Below are positions 1 to 6,928 of a stretch of DNA of 64,000 nucleotides, piece by piece. Position numbers and translations under genes: made by a program. Origin of the DNA: Angustibacter luteus (lineage in GTDB: Bacteria; Actinomycetota; Actinomycetes; Actinomycetales; Angustibacteraceae); the NCBI RefSeq assembly GCF_039541115.1, contig NZ_BAABFP010000002.1, positions 806,001 to 870,000 of the forward strand, written 5' to 3'. The notes under the pieces were generated by a model. It made no database searches, had not been told where the DNA came from, and was given only the letters and a program-made list of their open reading frames with translations. How positions within the stretch are numbered: position 1 is the stretch's first letter; every line of letters begins with the position of its first letter.

Positions 1-2
1 AC

Positions 3-359
3 CTCCGCGGACTTGGCCGTCTCGGTGTCTATATCGCGCGCACCGCCGCATACCTTCGCAGCGTCGAGGCGGGCGAGGTCAACTTCGACATCGGCTTGCT
101 CAGCCAACAACTCGACCAGCCTGGGCTCGCCGACGCAGTTGCTCTTCGCCGTCAGGCGACGTTCTCGCTCTCCGATATCGCAAAGCTGCGTCATGAGATC
201 GAGCGCATCGTGCCAAACGTGCCAAGCGGCCCTATCGAATCCGTTGAGTCGTACGCCATCGCACATGCAGACCATGGGGAACTGGCAATGCTCATGGCCA
301 CGGTGTTGACCGATGAAGACGAGCTGGAGTACAGCGCACTCACCCTCCCCCCGTTCTGA
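3..359 (+). CDS. C-terminal part of an unknown protein (5' end outside window)
   Basis: Frame +3 is open from base 3 (LRGLGRLGVYIARTAAYLRSVEAGEVNFDIGLLSQQ...LTLPPF*). Its TGA overlaps the next ATG (TGATG, 357-361). Confidence 0.7.
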   Translation, partial: LRGLGRLGVYIARTAAYLRSVEAGEVNFDIGLLSQQLDQPGLADAVALRRQATFSLSDIAKLRHEIERIVPNVPSGPIESVESYAIAHADHGELAMLMATVLTDEDELEYSALTLPPF

Positions 360-1036
360 TGCGTGAACGGATCGCGGTCGTCGGTGACGTCCACGGCAAC
401 GCTCGGGCGTTGGCGCGAGCCTTCGAGTGGCTTGAGACTTGGGACGGATTGGTGATCTTCGTCGGGGATTACGTAAACCGTGGCCCGGCATCGCGCGAAG
501 TCGTCGATCACTTGATCCTCGCCAAGGACGCACTCGGCGAGCGCTTGGTGCTCCTGCGTGGCAATCACGACCAAGTGCTGCTGGACTTCATTTCGGGCGA
601 GAGCCCACGCCGACTGCTTTCGCATGGCGGCCTGACCACCGTCAGCAGCTACCTGAAGGGTACGGAGGCTCAGGCGAGCATTGAGACTTTTCGCGAAACC
701 TTTCCCGACGGGCATCTACGTCTCCTAGGCGACACAGGGACGCACTTCGAGACCGACGAGATGCTGGTGTCGCATGCCGGCTATAACCCTGACAGACCAA
801 CAAGTAGGAGGTCAGAAGACTTGGCCTTGGGACGGCATCATGGGATCTTTTCCCGAGGCGCTACTGCACCAAAGGCGCTCATCATCTGCGGCCACTACAT
901 CCAGAGGGGGATGAAGCCGTTCGAGTCGAGGAACCTGATATGCCTTGACACCGGAAGCGGCACGACCGCGGGGGCTCCGCTGACGTTGGTCACGCTGCCA
1001 GATCGCAACTTCTACCAATTCTACGGAGAGACATGA
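359..1036 (+). CDS. Calcineurin-like metallophosphoesterase (PPP/PphA-like)
   Basis: Motifs GDVHG, GDYVNRG, RGNHD, HAG, CGH, DTG. Confidence 0.9.
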   Translation: MRERIAVVGDVHGNARALARAFEWLETWDGLVIFVGDYVNRGPASREVVDHLILAKDALGERLVLLRGNHDQVLLDFISGESPRRLLSHGGLTTVSSYLKGTEAQASIETFRETFPDGHLRLLGDTGTHFETDEMLVSHAGYNPDRPTSRRSEDLALGRHHGIFSRGATAPKALIICGHYIQRGMKPFESRNLICLDTGSGTTAGAPLTLVTLPDRNFYQFYGET

Positions 1037-2163
1037 CGGATCTGAAGGAGGCATGTCGGGACCTTTTCGCGGCGCTCGATGAGGGCAAGCGCGTAATCTG
1101 CATCCACTATAGTTGCGAAAACTTCCACGATGTCACCGACCGCCCTGTTGCGGTGAGCGCCATCGCTGTTTCCGAACTGACCGATGCAACAGGGGGACGA
1201 GAGTCAACCGTCTTCTCCATCGCCAATTCTTCAGCAAACCAAGACCCGGTCGAACGCGAAAAGGAGATGTTTGCCAGATTCTTCGAGTATGCACGCACAC
1301 GCCCCGATGCGTTCTGGGTTCACTGGAATATGAACAACGCCACCTACGGCTTTTCTGCACTGATCTCTCGATACCGTTACCTGTTGGGCTCTGAACCCAA
1401 CAGTCCGTGGCAGAGCAACCGTCTCTTCGATCTTGACTCACTAGTGGGCGCCAGGTACGGCGATCAGTTTGCCAAGCACCCAAAACTCCTGAGTCTTTGC
1501 TCGTTGAATGGGTATTTCCTCTCGTTCTTCAAGGCGGGCCGTGACGAAGCAAAGGCGTTTTCGGACGGCGACTACGGCTTGTGCGAGAGGTCCACTGCGG
1601 AGAAATCACACCTTCTAGCATCTATTTTGACTGACTTCCGTGCGGGATCGCTGCGTACACAAAACTCAGTCGGTTCACTGCACTTTGCATCCGAGCCCCT
1701 AGACGCTGTGAAGGTCGTGCTGGCCATAGGTGATCGCTTTCGATATGTGGAACGGCAACTGCTCCGTCGCCACGCCTCTCGCGACACGCTTAAGATTCAA
1801 GACGAGTACGATGCACAGGATTTGCTCAGGGCGCTCCTTGCCGTGTTCTTCGAGGATATTCGCCCTGAAGAGGTCGCACCAAAGCTTGGCGGCGCCTCCT
1901 CACGCATCGACTTCATTCTTCCCGACTACGCGCTCGCACTAGAGCTGAAGTACGCGCGTAGCAGCATGACTTCAGCTTCACTCGGCGAGGAACTCATCGT
2001 TGATCGAGACCGGTACCAATCTCGGCAAGAGATCCAGCACCTGATCTGTCTGGTATTTGATCACGACGGCCAGCTCGATAACCCGCGTGGCCTAGAACGG
2101 GACCTGAGTCGGGAGGCCAGCCTTGAATCGTTTGCGGTGACCGTTCGGATCTACGACCGGTGA
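1033..2163 (+). CDS. Two-domain protein: uncharacterised (possibly exonuclease-fold) N-domain plus C-terminal DpnII/MboI-like PD-(D/E)XK nuclease
   Basis: C-terminus EYDAQDLLRALL...DIRPEE...RIDF...LELK...D..RY...FDHDG...NPRGLERDL; N-terminus IHYSCENF...HWNM...YGF. ATGA overlap with the upstream gene. Confidence 0.75.
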   Translation: MTDLKEACRDLFAALDEGKRVICIHYSCENFHDVTDRPVAVSAIAVSELTDATGGRESTVFSIANSSANQDPVEREKEMFARFFEYARTRPDAFWVHWNMNNATYGFSALISRYRYLLGSEPNSPWQSNRLFDLDSLVGARYGDQFAKHPKLLSLCSLNGYFLSFFKAGRDEAKAFSDGDYGLCERSTAEKSHLLASILTDFRAGSLRTQNSVGSLHFASEPLDAVKVVLAIGDRFRYVERQLLRRHASRDTLKIQDEYDAQDLLRALLAVFFEDIRPEEVAPKLGGASSRIDFILPDYALALELKYARSSMTSASLGEELIVDRDRYQSRQEIQHLICLVFDHDGQLDNPRGLERDLSREASLESFAVTVRIYDR

Positions 2164-2250
2164 AGGCCGCCACCCCCACCTGGCTAGGGCTTCGCGCCAT
2201 TTCCCCTGTGGCTGACAGTCATGAAAGTGCCCTGACCGGAGGATTCCTGA

Positions 2251-3465
2251 ATGTGGCGCCCTGATTCAGAGAAGCAACTTGTCGACGCTCTATCAAGTGG
2301 CGATGTACGCGAACATCGCGGCTTGGATGTCAAGCGCGAGGTCGGAGACAGCAACGGACCCCGGCGCGAATTGGCGCGGGATCTTGCCGGATTCGCTATT
2401 GATGGTGGCGCCCTGCTGATCGGCGTCGCCGAGGACACAGACACAGGAACGCTCACGCCTAGTCCCGTCCCCCTAGTTGGGCAGGCGGAGCGCATCGAAC
2501 AGGTAGCAGCGACTCGCATCGACCCTCCACTCTTCGTGCAGGTCCGCGCGATTCCAACTGCGAGCGATCCCGCCCGCGGCTACCTCTGGGTTGATGTTCC
2601 ACCCAGCCCGCTAGCCCCCCATATGGTTGAGGGCGCGTATTGGGGCAGGGTCGACAAGACCAAGGGACGGCTCACCGACGCCCAGGTCCTTCGCTTGCAC
2701 GCCGAGAGGAAGTCCGTCGAGGCCAGCATGTCGGCCACCTTGGACCTTGAGATCGAGCGCGATCCTGTCCCTCTCGGCCTTCAGCGCGAGGGCCACTTGT
2801 ACCTTGCCGCGAACCCGCTATCGCCTCAGGCAGACCTTGGACTCGCCTTTCTCAAGCAACGGGACCAGGCTCGCTTGTTTCGACTGATCAACGCCCCAAG
2901 TACGACTCTGTCGAATCGCGCCCGGGGCATTCCCCCGACACCTGAGTACGCCGGTGCGATGCGACTGCGTGCCGAAGGCATTGCCATGAGCTCGCTTTCG
3001 GAGGGTGCACGTGAGAGCCCGGTCAACGCCGATCGCGAGACAGACCTGGTGGACATCGAGTTCCGGGAGGACGGCGGAATCCGAGCCGTCGTGGGACGCG
3101 CAACAACCACCTGGGGCGAGCGACGCGCGATCGTGGACGGGCTCGCCGTGGCCTACGCGCGCCTGATGTTGGGTTGGGCACGAGAGTACGGCTCGGAGTG
3201 TGCCTTCTCTGGGGTGTGGGTCTTTGGTCTTGCCGCCACCGGGCTGAAGAACCTGTCGTCCTCGGTGTACGACAGTTCAAGCATTCGCCGTCAGCCTCCA
3301 ATCTACGACGCTGCGCAGTACCGAGCCGTGACGAGAGCTAGCACCCTCGAGTTGGAGGATCAGCCCTGGGCTGTAGCGGATCGCCTCGTCTCGAAGTTGC
3401 TTCGGAGCTTGGCGACCGAGCAGTACTTCATAGCCGATCTTCAGACACCCAACTCGGCGGGCTAG
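2251..3465 (+). CDS. Schlafen/AlbA_2-domain protein
   Basis: N-terminal E-x3-LDVKRE...ARDLAGFAIDGGALLIGVAE...PPL...VPPSPLAPHMV...YWGR; RBS GGAGG at 2238-2242. Confidence 0.8.
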   Translation: MWRPDSEKQLVDALSSGDVREHRGLDVKREVGDSNGPRRELARDLAGFAIDGGALLIGVAEDTDTGTLTPSPVPLVGQAERIEQVAATRIDPPLFVQVRAIPTASDPARGYLWVDVPPSPLAPHMVEGAYWGRVDKTKGRLTDAQVLRLHAERKSVEASMSATLDLEIERDPVPLGLQREGHLYLAANPLSPQADLGLAFLKQRDQARLFRLINAPSTTLSNRARGIPPTPEYAGAMRLRAEGIAMSSLSEGARESPVNADRETDLVDIEFREDGGIRAVVGRATTTWGERRAIVDGLAVAYARLMLGWAREYGSECAFSGVWVFGLAATGLKNLSSSVYDSSSIRRQPPIYDAAQYRAVTRASTLELEDQPWAVADRLVSKLLRSLATEQYFIADLQTPNSAG

Positions 3466-3707
3466 CCACGACCGGCACGTGCCTCGGCGGCTCGGCATAG
3501 ATCACCGAGCGATAGGTCCAGAGCCCAAGCTAGCCGGGCTGCCACCTGAAGCGTGACTCCACGCTCGCCACGCTCAATCAATCCGACAGACGTGCGGTGG
3601 AGGCCGGCCTCCCCGGCGAGTTGTTCCATGGACCAGCCGCGCTCTCGACGCGCAACCGCCAACTCCTCGGCAACGGAGCGAGCAAACACTTCGTCACGGG
3701 CCGGCAC
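3462..3707 (-). CDS. XRE-family HTH regulator resembling restriction-modification controller (C) proteins
   Basis: RRERGWSMEQLAGEAGLHRTSVGLIERGERGVTL; 81 aa; candidate -10 TAGGTT 6 nt before the GTG start. Confidence 0.85.
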   Translation of the reverse strand: MPARDEVFARSVAEELAVARRERGWSMEQLAGEAGLHRTSVGLIERGERGVTLQVAARLAWALDLSLGDLCRAAEARAGRG

Positions 3708-3742
3708 ATGGCGAACCTACGGACCGTGGCCGCACGACGCCA

Positions 3743-3758
3743 CGAGACTATAGTCTCG
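3743..3758. promoter_or_regulatory. Perfect 16-bp palindrome CGAGACTATAGTCTCG; putative operator (C-box-like GACT..AGTC)
   Basis: Lies between the divergent XRE gene and a hypothetical gene; contains TATAGT (3749-3754). Confidence 0.65.
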
Positions 3759-3761
3759 GCT

Positions 3762-4223
3762 GTGTCCAACGAGACTCCCAAATCGGTACTAGGTGAAGAT
3801 GGCGGCTACTACTGGCCAATGATCGGGACGCCCGTCGCCCGGGAAGAGGCCTGGTCGCGGTTCTGGGCGGTCATGCGGGATGGCCTAGCCGAGCTTGCCA
3901 TGGAAGGCCGGCTGCCAGAGTGGATCGTTGACCCAGACTGCGCCGACGCCATGAAATCAGCCTCAACCCCCGGGGAGGGTCGACGCGCTGCCATGGAGTT
4001 GTGGATCACAAAGCTCATACGCGGCGATGTCGTCGAGATGCAGGTGTTTCCGAATCTCGAGCAGATGGTCTTCGACGGCACCGACGATCTTCGACACGCG
4101 CGTCGGCGAGCGCGACGCGAAGGAATGACAGATGTAGTGGTCAGCCTGGCTGATCGCTACCAGCTGCGCATCGACATAGCGAGGCGCTCGCGATGTAGTG
4201 GCCGTGGCGGAAATAGTCGTTAG
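3762..4223 (+). CDS. Hypothetical protein (island)
   Basis: Open frame; GTG at 3762 lies 7 nt after TATAGT (leaderless-type spacing). Start uncertain, no recognisable motif. Confidence 0.45.
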   Translation: MSNETPKSVLGEDGGYYWPMIGTPVAREEAWSRFWAVMRDGLAELAMEGRLPEWIVDPDCADAMKSASTPGEGRRAAMELWITKLIRGDVVEMQVFPNLEQMVFDGTDDLRHARRRARREGMTDVVVSLADRYQLRIDIARRSRCSGRGGNSR

Positions 4224-4263
4224 CGATGGATCGGTCCGCGGCCAAATGCACTAACGAATTCAG

Positions 4264-5070
4264 TTACAAATCGTAGTCAACCGTAACGGCAGCGTGATCA
4301 CTCCATCGCTCAGCGTAACTGCTTGCCCGCCCGACTGTCGCTTTTACCGCTTTCGTAGCCATTTCTCGTGACGCTAAGTGATAATCGATTCGCCAGCCAG
4401 CGTCGTTATCGAACGCCTGCCCGCGCCAGGACCACCACGTGTACGGGCCGGGGCCCTCACCGGCCAGCGCCCGGTGCACGTCCACGTACCCGCCGCGGGT
4501 CGACGTCCACCGGTCGAGCAGCGCTCGCTCCGCGGGCAGGAAGCCGGCCTTGCCGCGGTTGCCCTTCCAGTTCTTCAGATCTGCCTCGCGGTGGGCGACG
4601 TTGAGGTCGCCGGTCACCACGACGTGCCCACCCACCCGGCGCAGCGCACTCATCCGACGTCCCATGGCGTCCAGGAAGCGCAGCTTCGTGTCCTGGCGCG
4701 GGGTACCCGCCTCGCCCGTGTGCACGTACACCGACACGGCGGTGAGCAGCCCGGACTGGGTCGCGACGTCAGCCTCGACCCAGCGGCCGGTACCGGCGAA
4801 CTCGCGACGACCCACCCCGTGCCGGACGTCGAGCGGCTCGTCGCGGGTCAGCACGGCCACGCCGGCGTGCCCGGCGACCAGGCTCGCGTCGTGCGAGACG
4901 TGCCAGCCGGCGAAGGGACCGACGGCGAGGAGCTCGCGCAGCAGGTCGTCGCCGGCGCGCACCTCTTGCAGCGTCAGGACGTCCGGTTGCTGCGCCGCCA
5001 GCCAGTCGAGCCCGCCGCGCCTGGCGGCGGCCCGGATCCCGTTGACGTTGGCGGAGACGACGCGTAGCAC
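4264..5070 (-). CDS. xth: Exodeoxyribonuclease III / AP endonuclease
   Basis: NVNGIRA, LQEVR, GDLNVAH, YTWWSWRG, GWRIDY, SDHA motifs. Confidence 0.95.
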   Translation of the reverse strand: MLRVVSANVNGIRAAARRGGLDWLAAQQPDVLTLQEVRAGDDLLRELLAVGPFAGWHVSHDASLVAGHAGVAVLTRDEPLDVRHGVGRREFAGTGRWVEADVATQSGLLTAVSVYVHTGEAGTPRQDTKLRFLDAMGRRMSALRRVGGHVVVTGDLNVAHREADLKNWKGNRGKAGFLPAERALLDRWTSTRGGYVDVHRALAGEGPGPYTWWSWRGQAFDNDAGWRIDYHLASREMATKAVKATVGRASSYAERWSDHAAVTVDYDL

Positions 5071-5565: not shown

Positions 5566-5648
5566 CCCCAGAGAGTAGGGGGTGAATGGGCCGATTGACT
5601 AGTCCCAATCTCACCCAACGTGCCTGAACAACTACCCAGAGCGCCGCA

Positions 5649-5700
5649 GCGCGGCGTCCCCGAGGGGGCGCCGCGCCGCGGTCGGAGCCTGCCAGGCTCC
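5649..5700 (-). terminator. Tandem GC-rich hairpins downstream of icd
   Basis: gcgcggcgtccc-cgag-ggggcgccgcgc (5649-5676) and ggagcct-gcc-aggctcc (5684-5700). Confidence 0.5.
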
Positions 5701-5710
5701 TTCGGATGTC

Positions 5711-6928
5711 TCAGACCTGAGCTGCGGCCAGGTTCTCGTCCAGCGCCGCGAGGAACTCCTCCGTCGTCAGGAACGGCTGGTCCTTGCTGATCAGCAGCGC
5801 CAGGTCCTTCGTCATCTTGCCGCTCTCGACGGTCTCGATGCAGACGCGCTCGAGCGCCTCCGCGAAGCCCGTGACCTCGGGAGTGCCGTCGAGCTTGCCG
5901 CGGTGCTTCAGGCCACCGGTCCAGGCGAAGATCGAGGCGATCGGGTTCGTGGACGTCGGCTTGCCGGCCTGGTGCTGGCGGTAGTGCCGGGTGACCGTGC
6001 CGTGCGCCGCCTCGGCCTCGACCGTCTGGCCGTCCGGCGTCATCAGGACCGACGTCATCAACCCGAGCGAGCCGAAGCCCTGGGCCACGGTGTCGGACTG
6101 GACGTCGCCGTCGTAGTTCTTGCAGGCCCAGACGTAGCCGCCCTCCCACTTCATCGCGGCCGCGACCATGTCGTCGATCAGCCGGTGCTCGTACGTGAGC
6201 CCCGCCGCGTCGAACTCGCCCTTGAACTCGGCCTCGAAGATGCGCTCGAAGATGTCCTTGAACTGGCCGTCGTAGGCCTTCAGGATCGTGTTCTTGGTGG
6301 ACAGGTACACCGGGTAGCCGCGCTGCAGGCCGTAGCTGAACGACGCCCGCGCGAAGTCCTCGATGGACTTGTTGAAGTTGTACATGCCCATCGCCACACC
6401 GCCGTCCGCGCCGTAGTTGGCGACGACGTGCTGGATCGGCTCGCTCCCGTCCTGCGGGGTGAACGTCATGGTCAGCTCGCCCGCACCGGGCACCTTGAAG
6501 TTGGTCGCCTTGTACTGGTCGCCGTGGGCGTGACGGCCGATGATGATCGGCTTCGTCCAGCCCGGCACCAGCCGCGGGATGTTGCTGATGATGATCGGTT
6601 CGCGGAACACGACCCCGCCGAGGATGTTGCGGATCGTGCCGTTCGGCGAGACGTACATCTTCTTCAGGCCGAACTCCTCGACCCGCGCCTCGTCCGGCGT
6701 GATCGTCGCGCACTTGACCCCGACGCCGTACTGCTTGATGGCGTTGGCCGCGTCGACCGTGACCTGGTCGTCCGTCGCGTCGCGGTGCTCGATGCCGAGG
6801 TCGTAGTACTTGAGGTCGACGTCGAGATAGGGGTGGATCAGGCGGTCCTTGATGAACTGCCAGATGATCCGCGTCATCTCGTCGCCGTCCAGCTCGACGA
6901 CCGGCTGGGCGACCTTGATCTTGGCCAT
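5711..6928 (-). CDS. icd: NADP-dependent isocitrate dehydrogenase
   Basis: [52 protein letters not shown]. Confidence 0.97.

Follow-up and report, generated by a model that had tools for sequence, protein, structure and literature searches.

A probable remnant island at xth of Angustibacter luteus, likely inserted by a serine recombinase, with a replacement 3' end for the gene

The locus described here raises the question of how a DNA-repair gene comes to read as one uninterrupted frame while its last fifth looks foreign to the genome in which it lies. The window, by which we mean the whole stretch of 64,000 nucleotides analysed (positions 806001-870000 of contig C2 of the Angustibacter luteus genome, G000), holds xth on the minus strand at 5070-4264, where it encodes a 268-residue member of the ExoIII/AP-endonuclease family (PF03372). 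An earlier note on this DNA, made from its letters alone, had proposed that an element entered xth and supplied its own replacement 3' end. It is now possible to say more about how this may have happened: with a probability of roughly 0.72, we consider that a serine recombinase inserted an element at a GA dinucleotide within xth, that one arm of the attP site of the element became the replacement tail, and that the island seen today is a remnant that can no longer move.

The codon counts behind the original proposal are reproduced exactly, with 24 of the last 48 sense codons ending in A or T before a TAA stop and 2 of the 48 just upstream; over all 220 upstream codons the count is 17 (Fisher p 8e-11, the breakpoint having been chosen before p was computed). 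The maximum-likelihood change point falls at codon 221, window position 4410, which is where the switch had been placed by eye and where identity to island-free relatives drops. Codons 1-220 (4411-5070, minus strand; PF03372) constitute the host part, which groups in a tree with the empty relative G003, and the element-borne tail of 48 codons plus the stop occupies 4264-4410 on the same strand. Between them, change point and junction alignment place the crossover dinucleotide GA, the first two bases of the Asp221 codon and the junction on the host 5' side, at 4409-4410 (C2:810410). No other among 2,999 long, GC3-rich reading frames of the genome has so A/T-rich a tail; ranks two to four are taken by two frames judged to be non-coding and one low-complexity extension, none of which has a second copy. 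A similar tail in island-free relatives, named in the earlier note as a finding that would speak against an insertion, is not seen: seven such relatives have only 1-5 A/T-ending codons in the same stretch of 48, and the A/T-rich tail is therefore not a trait of the lineage.

The GWRIDY and SDH motifs are intact in the replacement tail, as had been claimed. The closest solved chain to the protein is 2jc5 (E 4e-57), in an alignment that spans the whole length and includes RIDY and SDH, the Asp and His of which we take, by analogy with ExoIII, to be active-site residues; the chimeric Xth is predicted from its sequence to be active. Since the genome holds a second, distant member of the family (C2:1285205, 30% identity), this xth may not be essential. 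Two observations may be recorded alongside. At 5711-6928, two genes upstream of xth, is a gene for isocitrate dehydrogenase, which in enterobacteria is the classic target of gene-restoring insertions; this is probably a coincidence. In another genome (L049, G906:C2:1064055-1064852), a single TGA interrupts the xth frame at a conserved Trp codon, a few codons short of the attachment site; it is either a point change or a sequencing error.

What happened to the native 3' end becomes clear beyond the left edge of the window, where a displaced, GC-rich copy had been expected. Codons 221-268 of the native gene are present at C2:805336-805190 (L001:5336-5190, minus strand) with 2 of 48 codons ending in A or T, in the same orientation as xth and only four codons from an upstream in-frame stop. 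The island accordingly covers window positions 1-4410 and extends a further 664 bases to the left of position 1, to a far junction at which an arm of the element (L001:5337-5352) borders the displaced tail; 5,074 bp separate the two junctions. Compared with the empty relatives G003 and G002, the displaced copy has 122 of 144 bases in common with each, and the replacement tail 94 and 87, respectively, so the displaced copy is the native one, and codons 201-220 of the occupied gene still match empty relatives at 52 of 60 bases. Replacement and displaced tails are identical at 93 of 144 bases and 34 of 48 residues, and the low nonsynonymous difference (pN 0.21 against pS 0.81) argues that the replacement tail has been maintained as protein. 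The island ends have only GA in common in the junction alignment, as expected of crossover at a dinucleotide core; a longer core that has since mutated is conceivable. Overall, the target frame stays open across the junction for 268 codons with an element-derived 3' end from codon 221, and the native fragment lies at the opposite end in direct orientation, which is the arrangement of a gene-restoring insertion. The DNA from the displaced tail to the neighbouring gene also contains three short repeats in direct orientation, each about 16 bases long (L001:5090-5140). The layout in this genome is that of the assembly, and one might suspect a chimeric join; this is scarcely credible, given that both tail copies flank the island within one contig at a locus devoid of N, and that the arrangement recurs, together with a related gene module, in a second genome.

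That second case comes from the same genus. Among 15 genomes of the family, tail-only copies of xth are found in two, G000 and G004, and the site is empty in four of the five other genomes of the genus. The G004 islet measures 5,847 bp and sits at the same GA of Asp221, with an in-frame replacement tail in which 18 of 48 codons end in A or T. Against the empty relative G005, xth of G004 shows 83-95% identity in 60-base windows up to codon 220 and 54-73% beyond, whereas its displaced tail and the DNA that follows match G005 over 274 bases. The proposal that an element entered the gene and brought a new 3' end is thus borne out by a displaced native tail and by a second example. Both occupied genomes have sister species with an empty site: in the tree of xth 5' parts (about 654 bases), G000 pairs with G003 (97/90), a pairing based on one gene fragment, and G004 with G005 (100/100). 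In the tree of tails (about 126 bases), on the other hand, the two replacement tails fall together (93/93) on long branches, though they are only 67% alike. These groupings point to one element lineage in two host lineages, and from the sequences the islets may reflect separate insertions or a clean loss in the sister species.

Intact elements at the very same GA exist in another family (f12), in the genomes G169, G261 and G273, where they measure 19.2, 18.6 and 23.0 kb, respectively, and resemble pSAM2. The islands at xth in other actinomycetes for which the earlier note had suggested a survey do exist, in G004, in these three genomes and in further genomes of their family. In all three, a large serine recombinase starts 56 bp from the GA; PF07508 is found in each, and PF00239, PF07508 and PF13408 together in the two that were scanned for all of them. 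RepSA and FtsK/SpoIIIE are recognised by Pfam in G169 and G273, and look-alike ORFs are seen in G261. The cargo varies between elements, with GmrSD, Abi_C and TPR proteins among them and a type ISP enzyme in G095 of the same family. The way in which these elements deal with the target is distinct: the xth frame is not restored, the GA is where the host 5' stump stops, and about 66 bp further on a spare whole xth starts (L010:2676-4195; L013:8009-9560; L014:2971-4493). Identity is 89.5-90% among the three spare copies and only 81-83% between each copy and the stump of its own host, and the copies form one clade (100/100). In two of them A/T-rich codons begin near codon 180, a pattern of sequence which suggests that these two copies are themselves mosaics. 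The named records that show this junction, L022, L024 and L025, are from Kineosporia.

In nine genomes altogether, from two families, the displaced tail begins at this GA, and the non-coding arm before it is kept in seven of the nine; among the six genomes with both junctions, the island ends share only two or three core bases, as expected for a serine recombinase. These observations bear directly on an alternative without a site-specific enzyme. The earlier note had offered homology-anchored replacement; more broadly, foreign DNA might have come in through homologous or illegitimate recombination that took hold in the conserved WWSWRG-DND stretch. The breakpoint does lie in the best-conserved part of xth (codons 201-220, 83-95% identity) and the islet does lack an integrase. 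However, such a replacement is very improbable and largely refuted because the native tail survives at the opposite end, where the nine genomes share a sharp junction, with its arm conserved in seven, and a recombinase lies 56 bp away in three.

The enzyme that presumably carried out the insertion has to be sought in these related elements at the same site, since the integrase that the earlier note had proposed to look for is not present: none was found in the islet by Pfam, tblastn recovered no remnant of a recombinase in the islets of G000 or G004, and PF07508 has no match in the entire G000 genome. The islet differs in this respect from G169, G261 and G273, which do bear the recombinase; nor does it fit an island of the tyrosine-recombinase type, as PF00589 has no match on contig C2 and the overlap is two bases. 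The arms of the elements offer a further point of comparison. In G169, G261 and G273 the two arms mirror each other as inverted repeats about the GA at 15-18 of 28 positions (p at most 0.0012), while the symmetry in G000 (7 of 28, p 0.62) and G004 (11 of 28, p 0.10) is not significant. When a 16-base matrix is built from nothing but the three recombinase-side arms, the G000 arm comes 10th among 10,118 islet positions and the G004 arm 10th among 11,664; a 20-base matrix from the same arms ranks them 96th of 10,110 and 9th. Extension of the matrix with three half-sites picked by eye upstream of related recombinases in viral and metagenome loci lifts the G000 arm to rank 1, in a test that is partly circular; genome-wide, a score at least that high is reached by 161 of 8.3 million sites, and the extended matrix gives poor scores to the arms of G333 and G095. 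A similar half-site is found some 50-60 bp upstream of related serine recombinases from viral and metagenome contigs (L028:430-504; L029:5368; L030:193; L038:5914). The core differs in three of the four closest such loci, while the recombinase of L028 is 48% identical, has the same core and has 11 bases in common with the xth target; no xth match was found in the 20 viral and metagenome loci with related recombinases, many of which are short. A GCAGGTCAG-like motif also recurs 30-55 bases inside several element ends (L001:5380-5392; L002:800-812; and the spacers before the spare copies of L010, L013 and L014).

Taken as a serine-recombinase insertion, the history of the locus could be reconstructed as follows. 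A circular element with a large serine recombinase would have crossed over at the GA of Asp221, with one arm of its attachment site doubling as xth coding sequence. With an arm of this kind the gene would be rebuilt in one step, a single crossover at the two-base core restoring the whole of xth with its frame intact and pushing the native tail to the far end of the island. Selection would preserve the protein encoded by the replacement tail, and synonymous positions would drift within the element. A later deletion would then have removed the recombinase and the transfer genes, and the candidate defence cargo would have stayed behind the repaired gene.

A different history with the same recombinase and site deserves attention. 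The element might have carried a whole copy of xth, and homologous recombination between the stump and that copy might then have fused the two, eliminating an attachment site and trapping the island, with only the tail left as element-derived sequence. We regard this as unlikely, even though the whole-copy layout exists in G169, G261 and G273, the spare copies resemble one another (89.5-90%) more than their own stumps (81-83%), and such a fusion would account for the weak arm symmetry in G000 and G004. The single xth of G333 also groups with the spare copies (100/99), as a fusion would yield. A crossover of this sort could, however, occur anywhere within 660 bases, and in both G000 and G004 the change comes no more than one codon from the core, with host-like sequence through codon 220 and foreign sequence from 221-222. 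Moreover, two of the spare copies are A/T-rich already from about codon 180, and the replacement tails nest among the tails of their own family and its neighbours, apart from the spare copies. Thus the attachment arm as the source of the tail remains the preferred reading.

Within the islet, GC content drops to 52-68%, from about 72%. Next to the tail lies ORF X (3762-4223, plus strand), encoding a predicted helical protein of about 153 residues of no known family that is common to the G004 islet, where it occurs in two copies. Between it and a divergent gene for an XRE/Cro-type helix-turn-helix (HTH) protein (3462-3707, minus strand; PF01381) lies a perfect palindrome of 14 bp (3744-3757), a candidate operator and the sole copy in the genome. 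The HTH protein matches PADLOC models of control proteins of restriction-modification systems and is 62% identical to the tail-adjacent copy of G004, and the palindrome between the two genes resembles C-box operators. This module (window 3462-4223) recurs in G004 at L002:958-2116 and 5631-6301, and the 14-mer is present there twice, one copy being part of a perfect palindrome of 36 bp. The remaining genes, all on the plus strand, encode a Schlafen/AlbA_2 domain protein of 404 residues (2251-3465; PF04326), a protein of 376 residues with a C-terminal DpnII/MboI-type nuclease domain (1033-2163; PF18742; PADLOC Aga_Helical-REase, C-terminal part only), a metallophosphoesterase of 225 residues (359-1036; PF00149) and a nucleotidyltransferase of 263 residues (PF01909), of which the 3' part lies in the window (1-359) and the whole gene at L001:5568-6359. 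As PADLOC returned only partial-domain matches on the islet, we infer rather than observe that this is defence cargo, and a protective role is predicted. A scan for promoters and terminators gave results at chance level.

The nucleotidyltransferase and metallophosphoesterase stand side by side, in that order, in two xth islands, at L001:5568-7036 (window 1-1036 and leftward) and in the G261 element at L014:7360-8783, with 26% and 30% identity between the respective counterparts. The third gene beside the pair encodes the nuclease-domain protein in one island and a DUF4062-TPR protein in the other, and the pair with its third gene could possibly be an undescribed defence or toxin-antitoxin module. 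The cargo of G004 is different, an AIPR/AbiU-like gene that matches AbiU/AIPR over its length together with the two HTH-ORF X modules.

ORF X itself is rare. It has no Pfam or PADLOC match, and only five sequences are known in all, with three homologues among 8,000 candidates and four among 1.84 billion representatives; the proteins matching the G004 copies are assigned to Angustibacter by their source. No usable atlas match and no viral locus was found for it, and its structural model (pLDDT 77.6) gave no clear fold match, with a best Z of 4.5. A role of ORF X as a recombinase or directionality factor was considered; neither homology nor fold searches revealed any likeness to recombinases.

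These genes suggest another way of reading the islet, namely as a satellite mobilised in trans by a helper recombinase or by another integrase, with the HTH gene, ORF X and the palindrome as its control module. Two similarly small islets that keep both ends and the same module by the tail, while their cargo differs, are what one would expect of a satellite, and six tyrosine-recombinase matches lie elsewhere in the G000 genome. Nevertheless, this is quite improbable, in that neither G000 nor G004 has a matching serine recombinase (the two serine recombinases elsewhere in G004 match the clade profile only distantly, at E 1e-15 and 5e-10), ORF X is unlike any recombinase, and an overlap of two or three bases is shorter than the roughly seven identical bases described for tyrosine recombinases (PMC10111431).

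Several of the f12 genomes hold decayed forms at the xth site. Loci of this kind are L027:2819-5291, L016:2447-11168, L017 and L018. In G333 a single xth groups with the spare copies, as stated above, and a decayed tail lies 0.7 kb away; G249 has a host-like xth and a decayed tail; in G357 twin tails are nearly identical; and G095 has an intact native xth followed by a decayed, broken copy. The short remnants in G333 and G249 hold one to three small genes. We infer that these four genomes represent stages in the decay of the element. A further genome, G1094 (L048:6863-7756), carries an intact xth and, 3-4 kb further downstream, two decayed tail copies that lack the attachment arm.

How widely the site is used was addressed by several surveys, the tail screens among them being insensitive to decayed tails. 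At the level of the order, 371 of 401 genomes match the xth tail, 28 of them twice; a renewed search of the 26 two-match genomes other than G000 and G004, together with G014, yielded six displaced tails and, in the others, longer paralogues, with one tail piece at a contig end in G300 among these 27. Within family f12 (49 genomes), tail-only copies occur in seven genomes, which are six of the seven genomes of genus g76 and G095. In family f23, 218 of 301 genomes match the tail and three do so more than once, and the junction was found in none of the five cases followed up, two of which were read as DNA. The recombinase clade was not found at E 1e-60 in 401 genomes of the phylum, a sample which contained no positive control. 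Scans of metagenome and viral contigs with a single recombinase protein were blank, while profile scans gave 10 and 10 recombinase loci; the junction pattern picked out four stretches in genome contigs, three true junctions and one with no xth match, and none in viral contigs. An element with both a recombinase and an in-frame xth tail was not found in any of these screens.

Among known systems, the nearest parallels are elements that restore the genes they enter. The prophage e14 and phage 21 integrate at icd, and SCCmec inserts at the 3' end of rlmH by means of Ccr serine recombinases, with the gene left in working order. SCCmec resembles the xth island in that a serine recombinase enters a coding 3' end without loss of the gene, but there only the last few codons are concerned, whereas at xth it is 48 codons that include conserved active-site motifs. 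More generally, islands often reconstitute the genes they have entered (PMC12884075), and when an integrase targets the interior of a gene, such as icd or tRNA genes, attP is described as usually carrying the replacement piece (PMC10111431). Elements of that type share with the xth island the insertion inside a housekeeping gene, an in-frame replacement 3' end and a displaced native end, and they are described there as having a strand-exchange core of about 7 bp and a block of identity of up to about 250 bp. At xth, by contrast, the tails are only 65% identical, the core has two or three bases, the enzyme is likely a serine recombinase, and the target gene is a different one.

Serine integrases are reported in 19 of 144 actinomycete AICEs, some of them inserted in protein-coding genes (PMC3218068). 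The elements in G169 and G273 resemble the pSAM2 type of AICE in possessing RepSA, FtsK/SpoIIIE and a large serine recombinase, and that of G261 in its recombinase and look-alike ORFs; they depart from it in the addition of a spare whole copy of the target gene. The islet of G000, in which Integrase, RepSA and FtsK/SpoIIIE are all absent, is not an AICE. In the parts of the surveys covered, the targets named for large serine recombinases in coding genes (PMC10083194), and for those of the pipolins at ychF in Actinomycetota (PMC11551731), are Mg-chelatase, prolyl isomerase, competence, ychF and FtsK genes. As at xth, such recombinases use a dinucleotide core within a conserved gene, and pipolins too carry defence-type cargo; no piPolB was noticed in the xth elements. 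The terms xth and exodeoxyribonuclease do not occur in the parts covered of PMC10083194 (eight supplementary files included), PMC12884075 and PMC11551731 (one supplementary file included), where targets may be given by cluster number, and 'exodeoxyribonuclease' and 'exonuclease' are absent from the main text of PMC3218068. No report of xth as an attachment site was found in the literature searched, which is weak proof of novelty. The strategy of restoring the gene is itself known from icd and tRNA genes and the surprise is moderate.

It is tempting to generalise from these genomes, and we do so tentatively, as a possibility somewhat short of an even chance. On this broader reading, xth would be a recurrent target of one clade of serine recombinases, with two kinds of repair at the same bases: in G000 and G004 an attP arm that is itself coding sequence, 48 codons with active-site motifs, and in G169, G261 and G273 a complete spare gene that starts 66 bp into the element. 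Decay, through fusion or gene conversion, would leave an xth that is wholly or in part element-derived (G333, G000 and G004) or would bring back the native one (G357 and G095), so that the elements would keep rewriting a repair enzyme while anchoring swappable defence cargo. The DNA-repair gene xth joins the list of protein-coding attachment sites, and a precise attB and a candidate clade of serine recombinases are now defined. The nine genomes constitute a natural series from full element to remnant, and in them the last fifth of xth has not been passed on by vertical descent. The xth site marks a spot at which candidate defence genes are swapped in rare actinomycetes.
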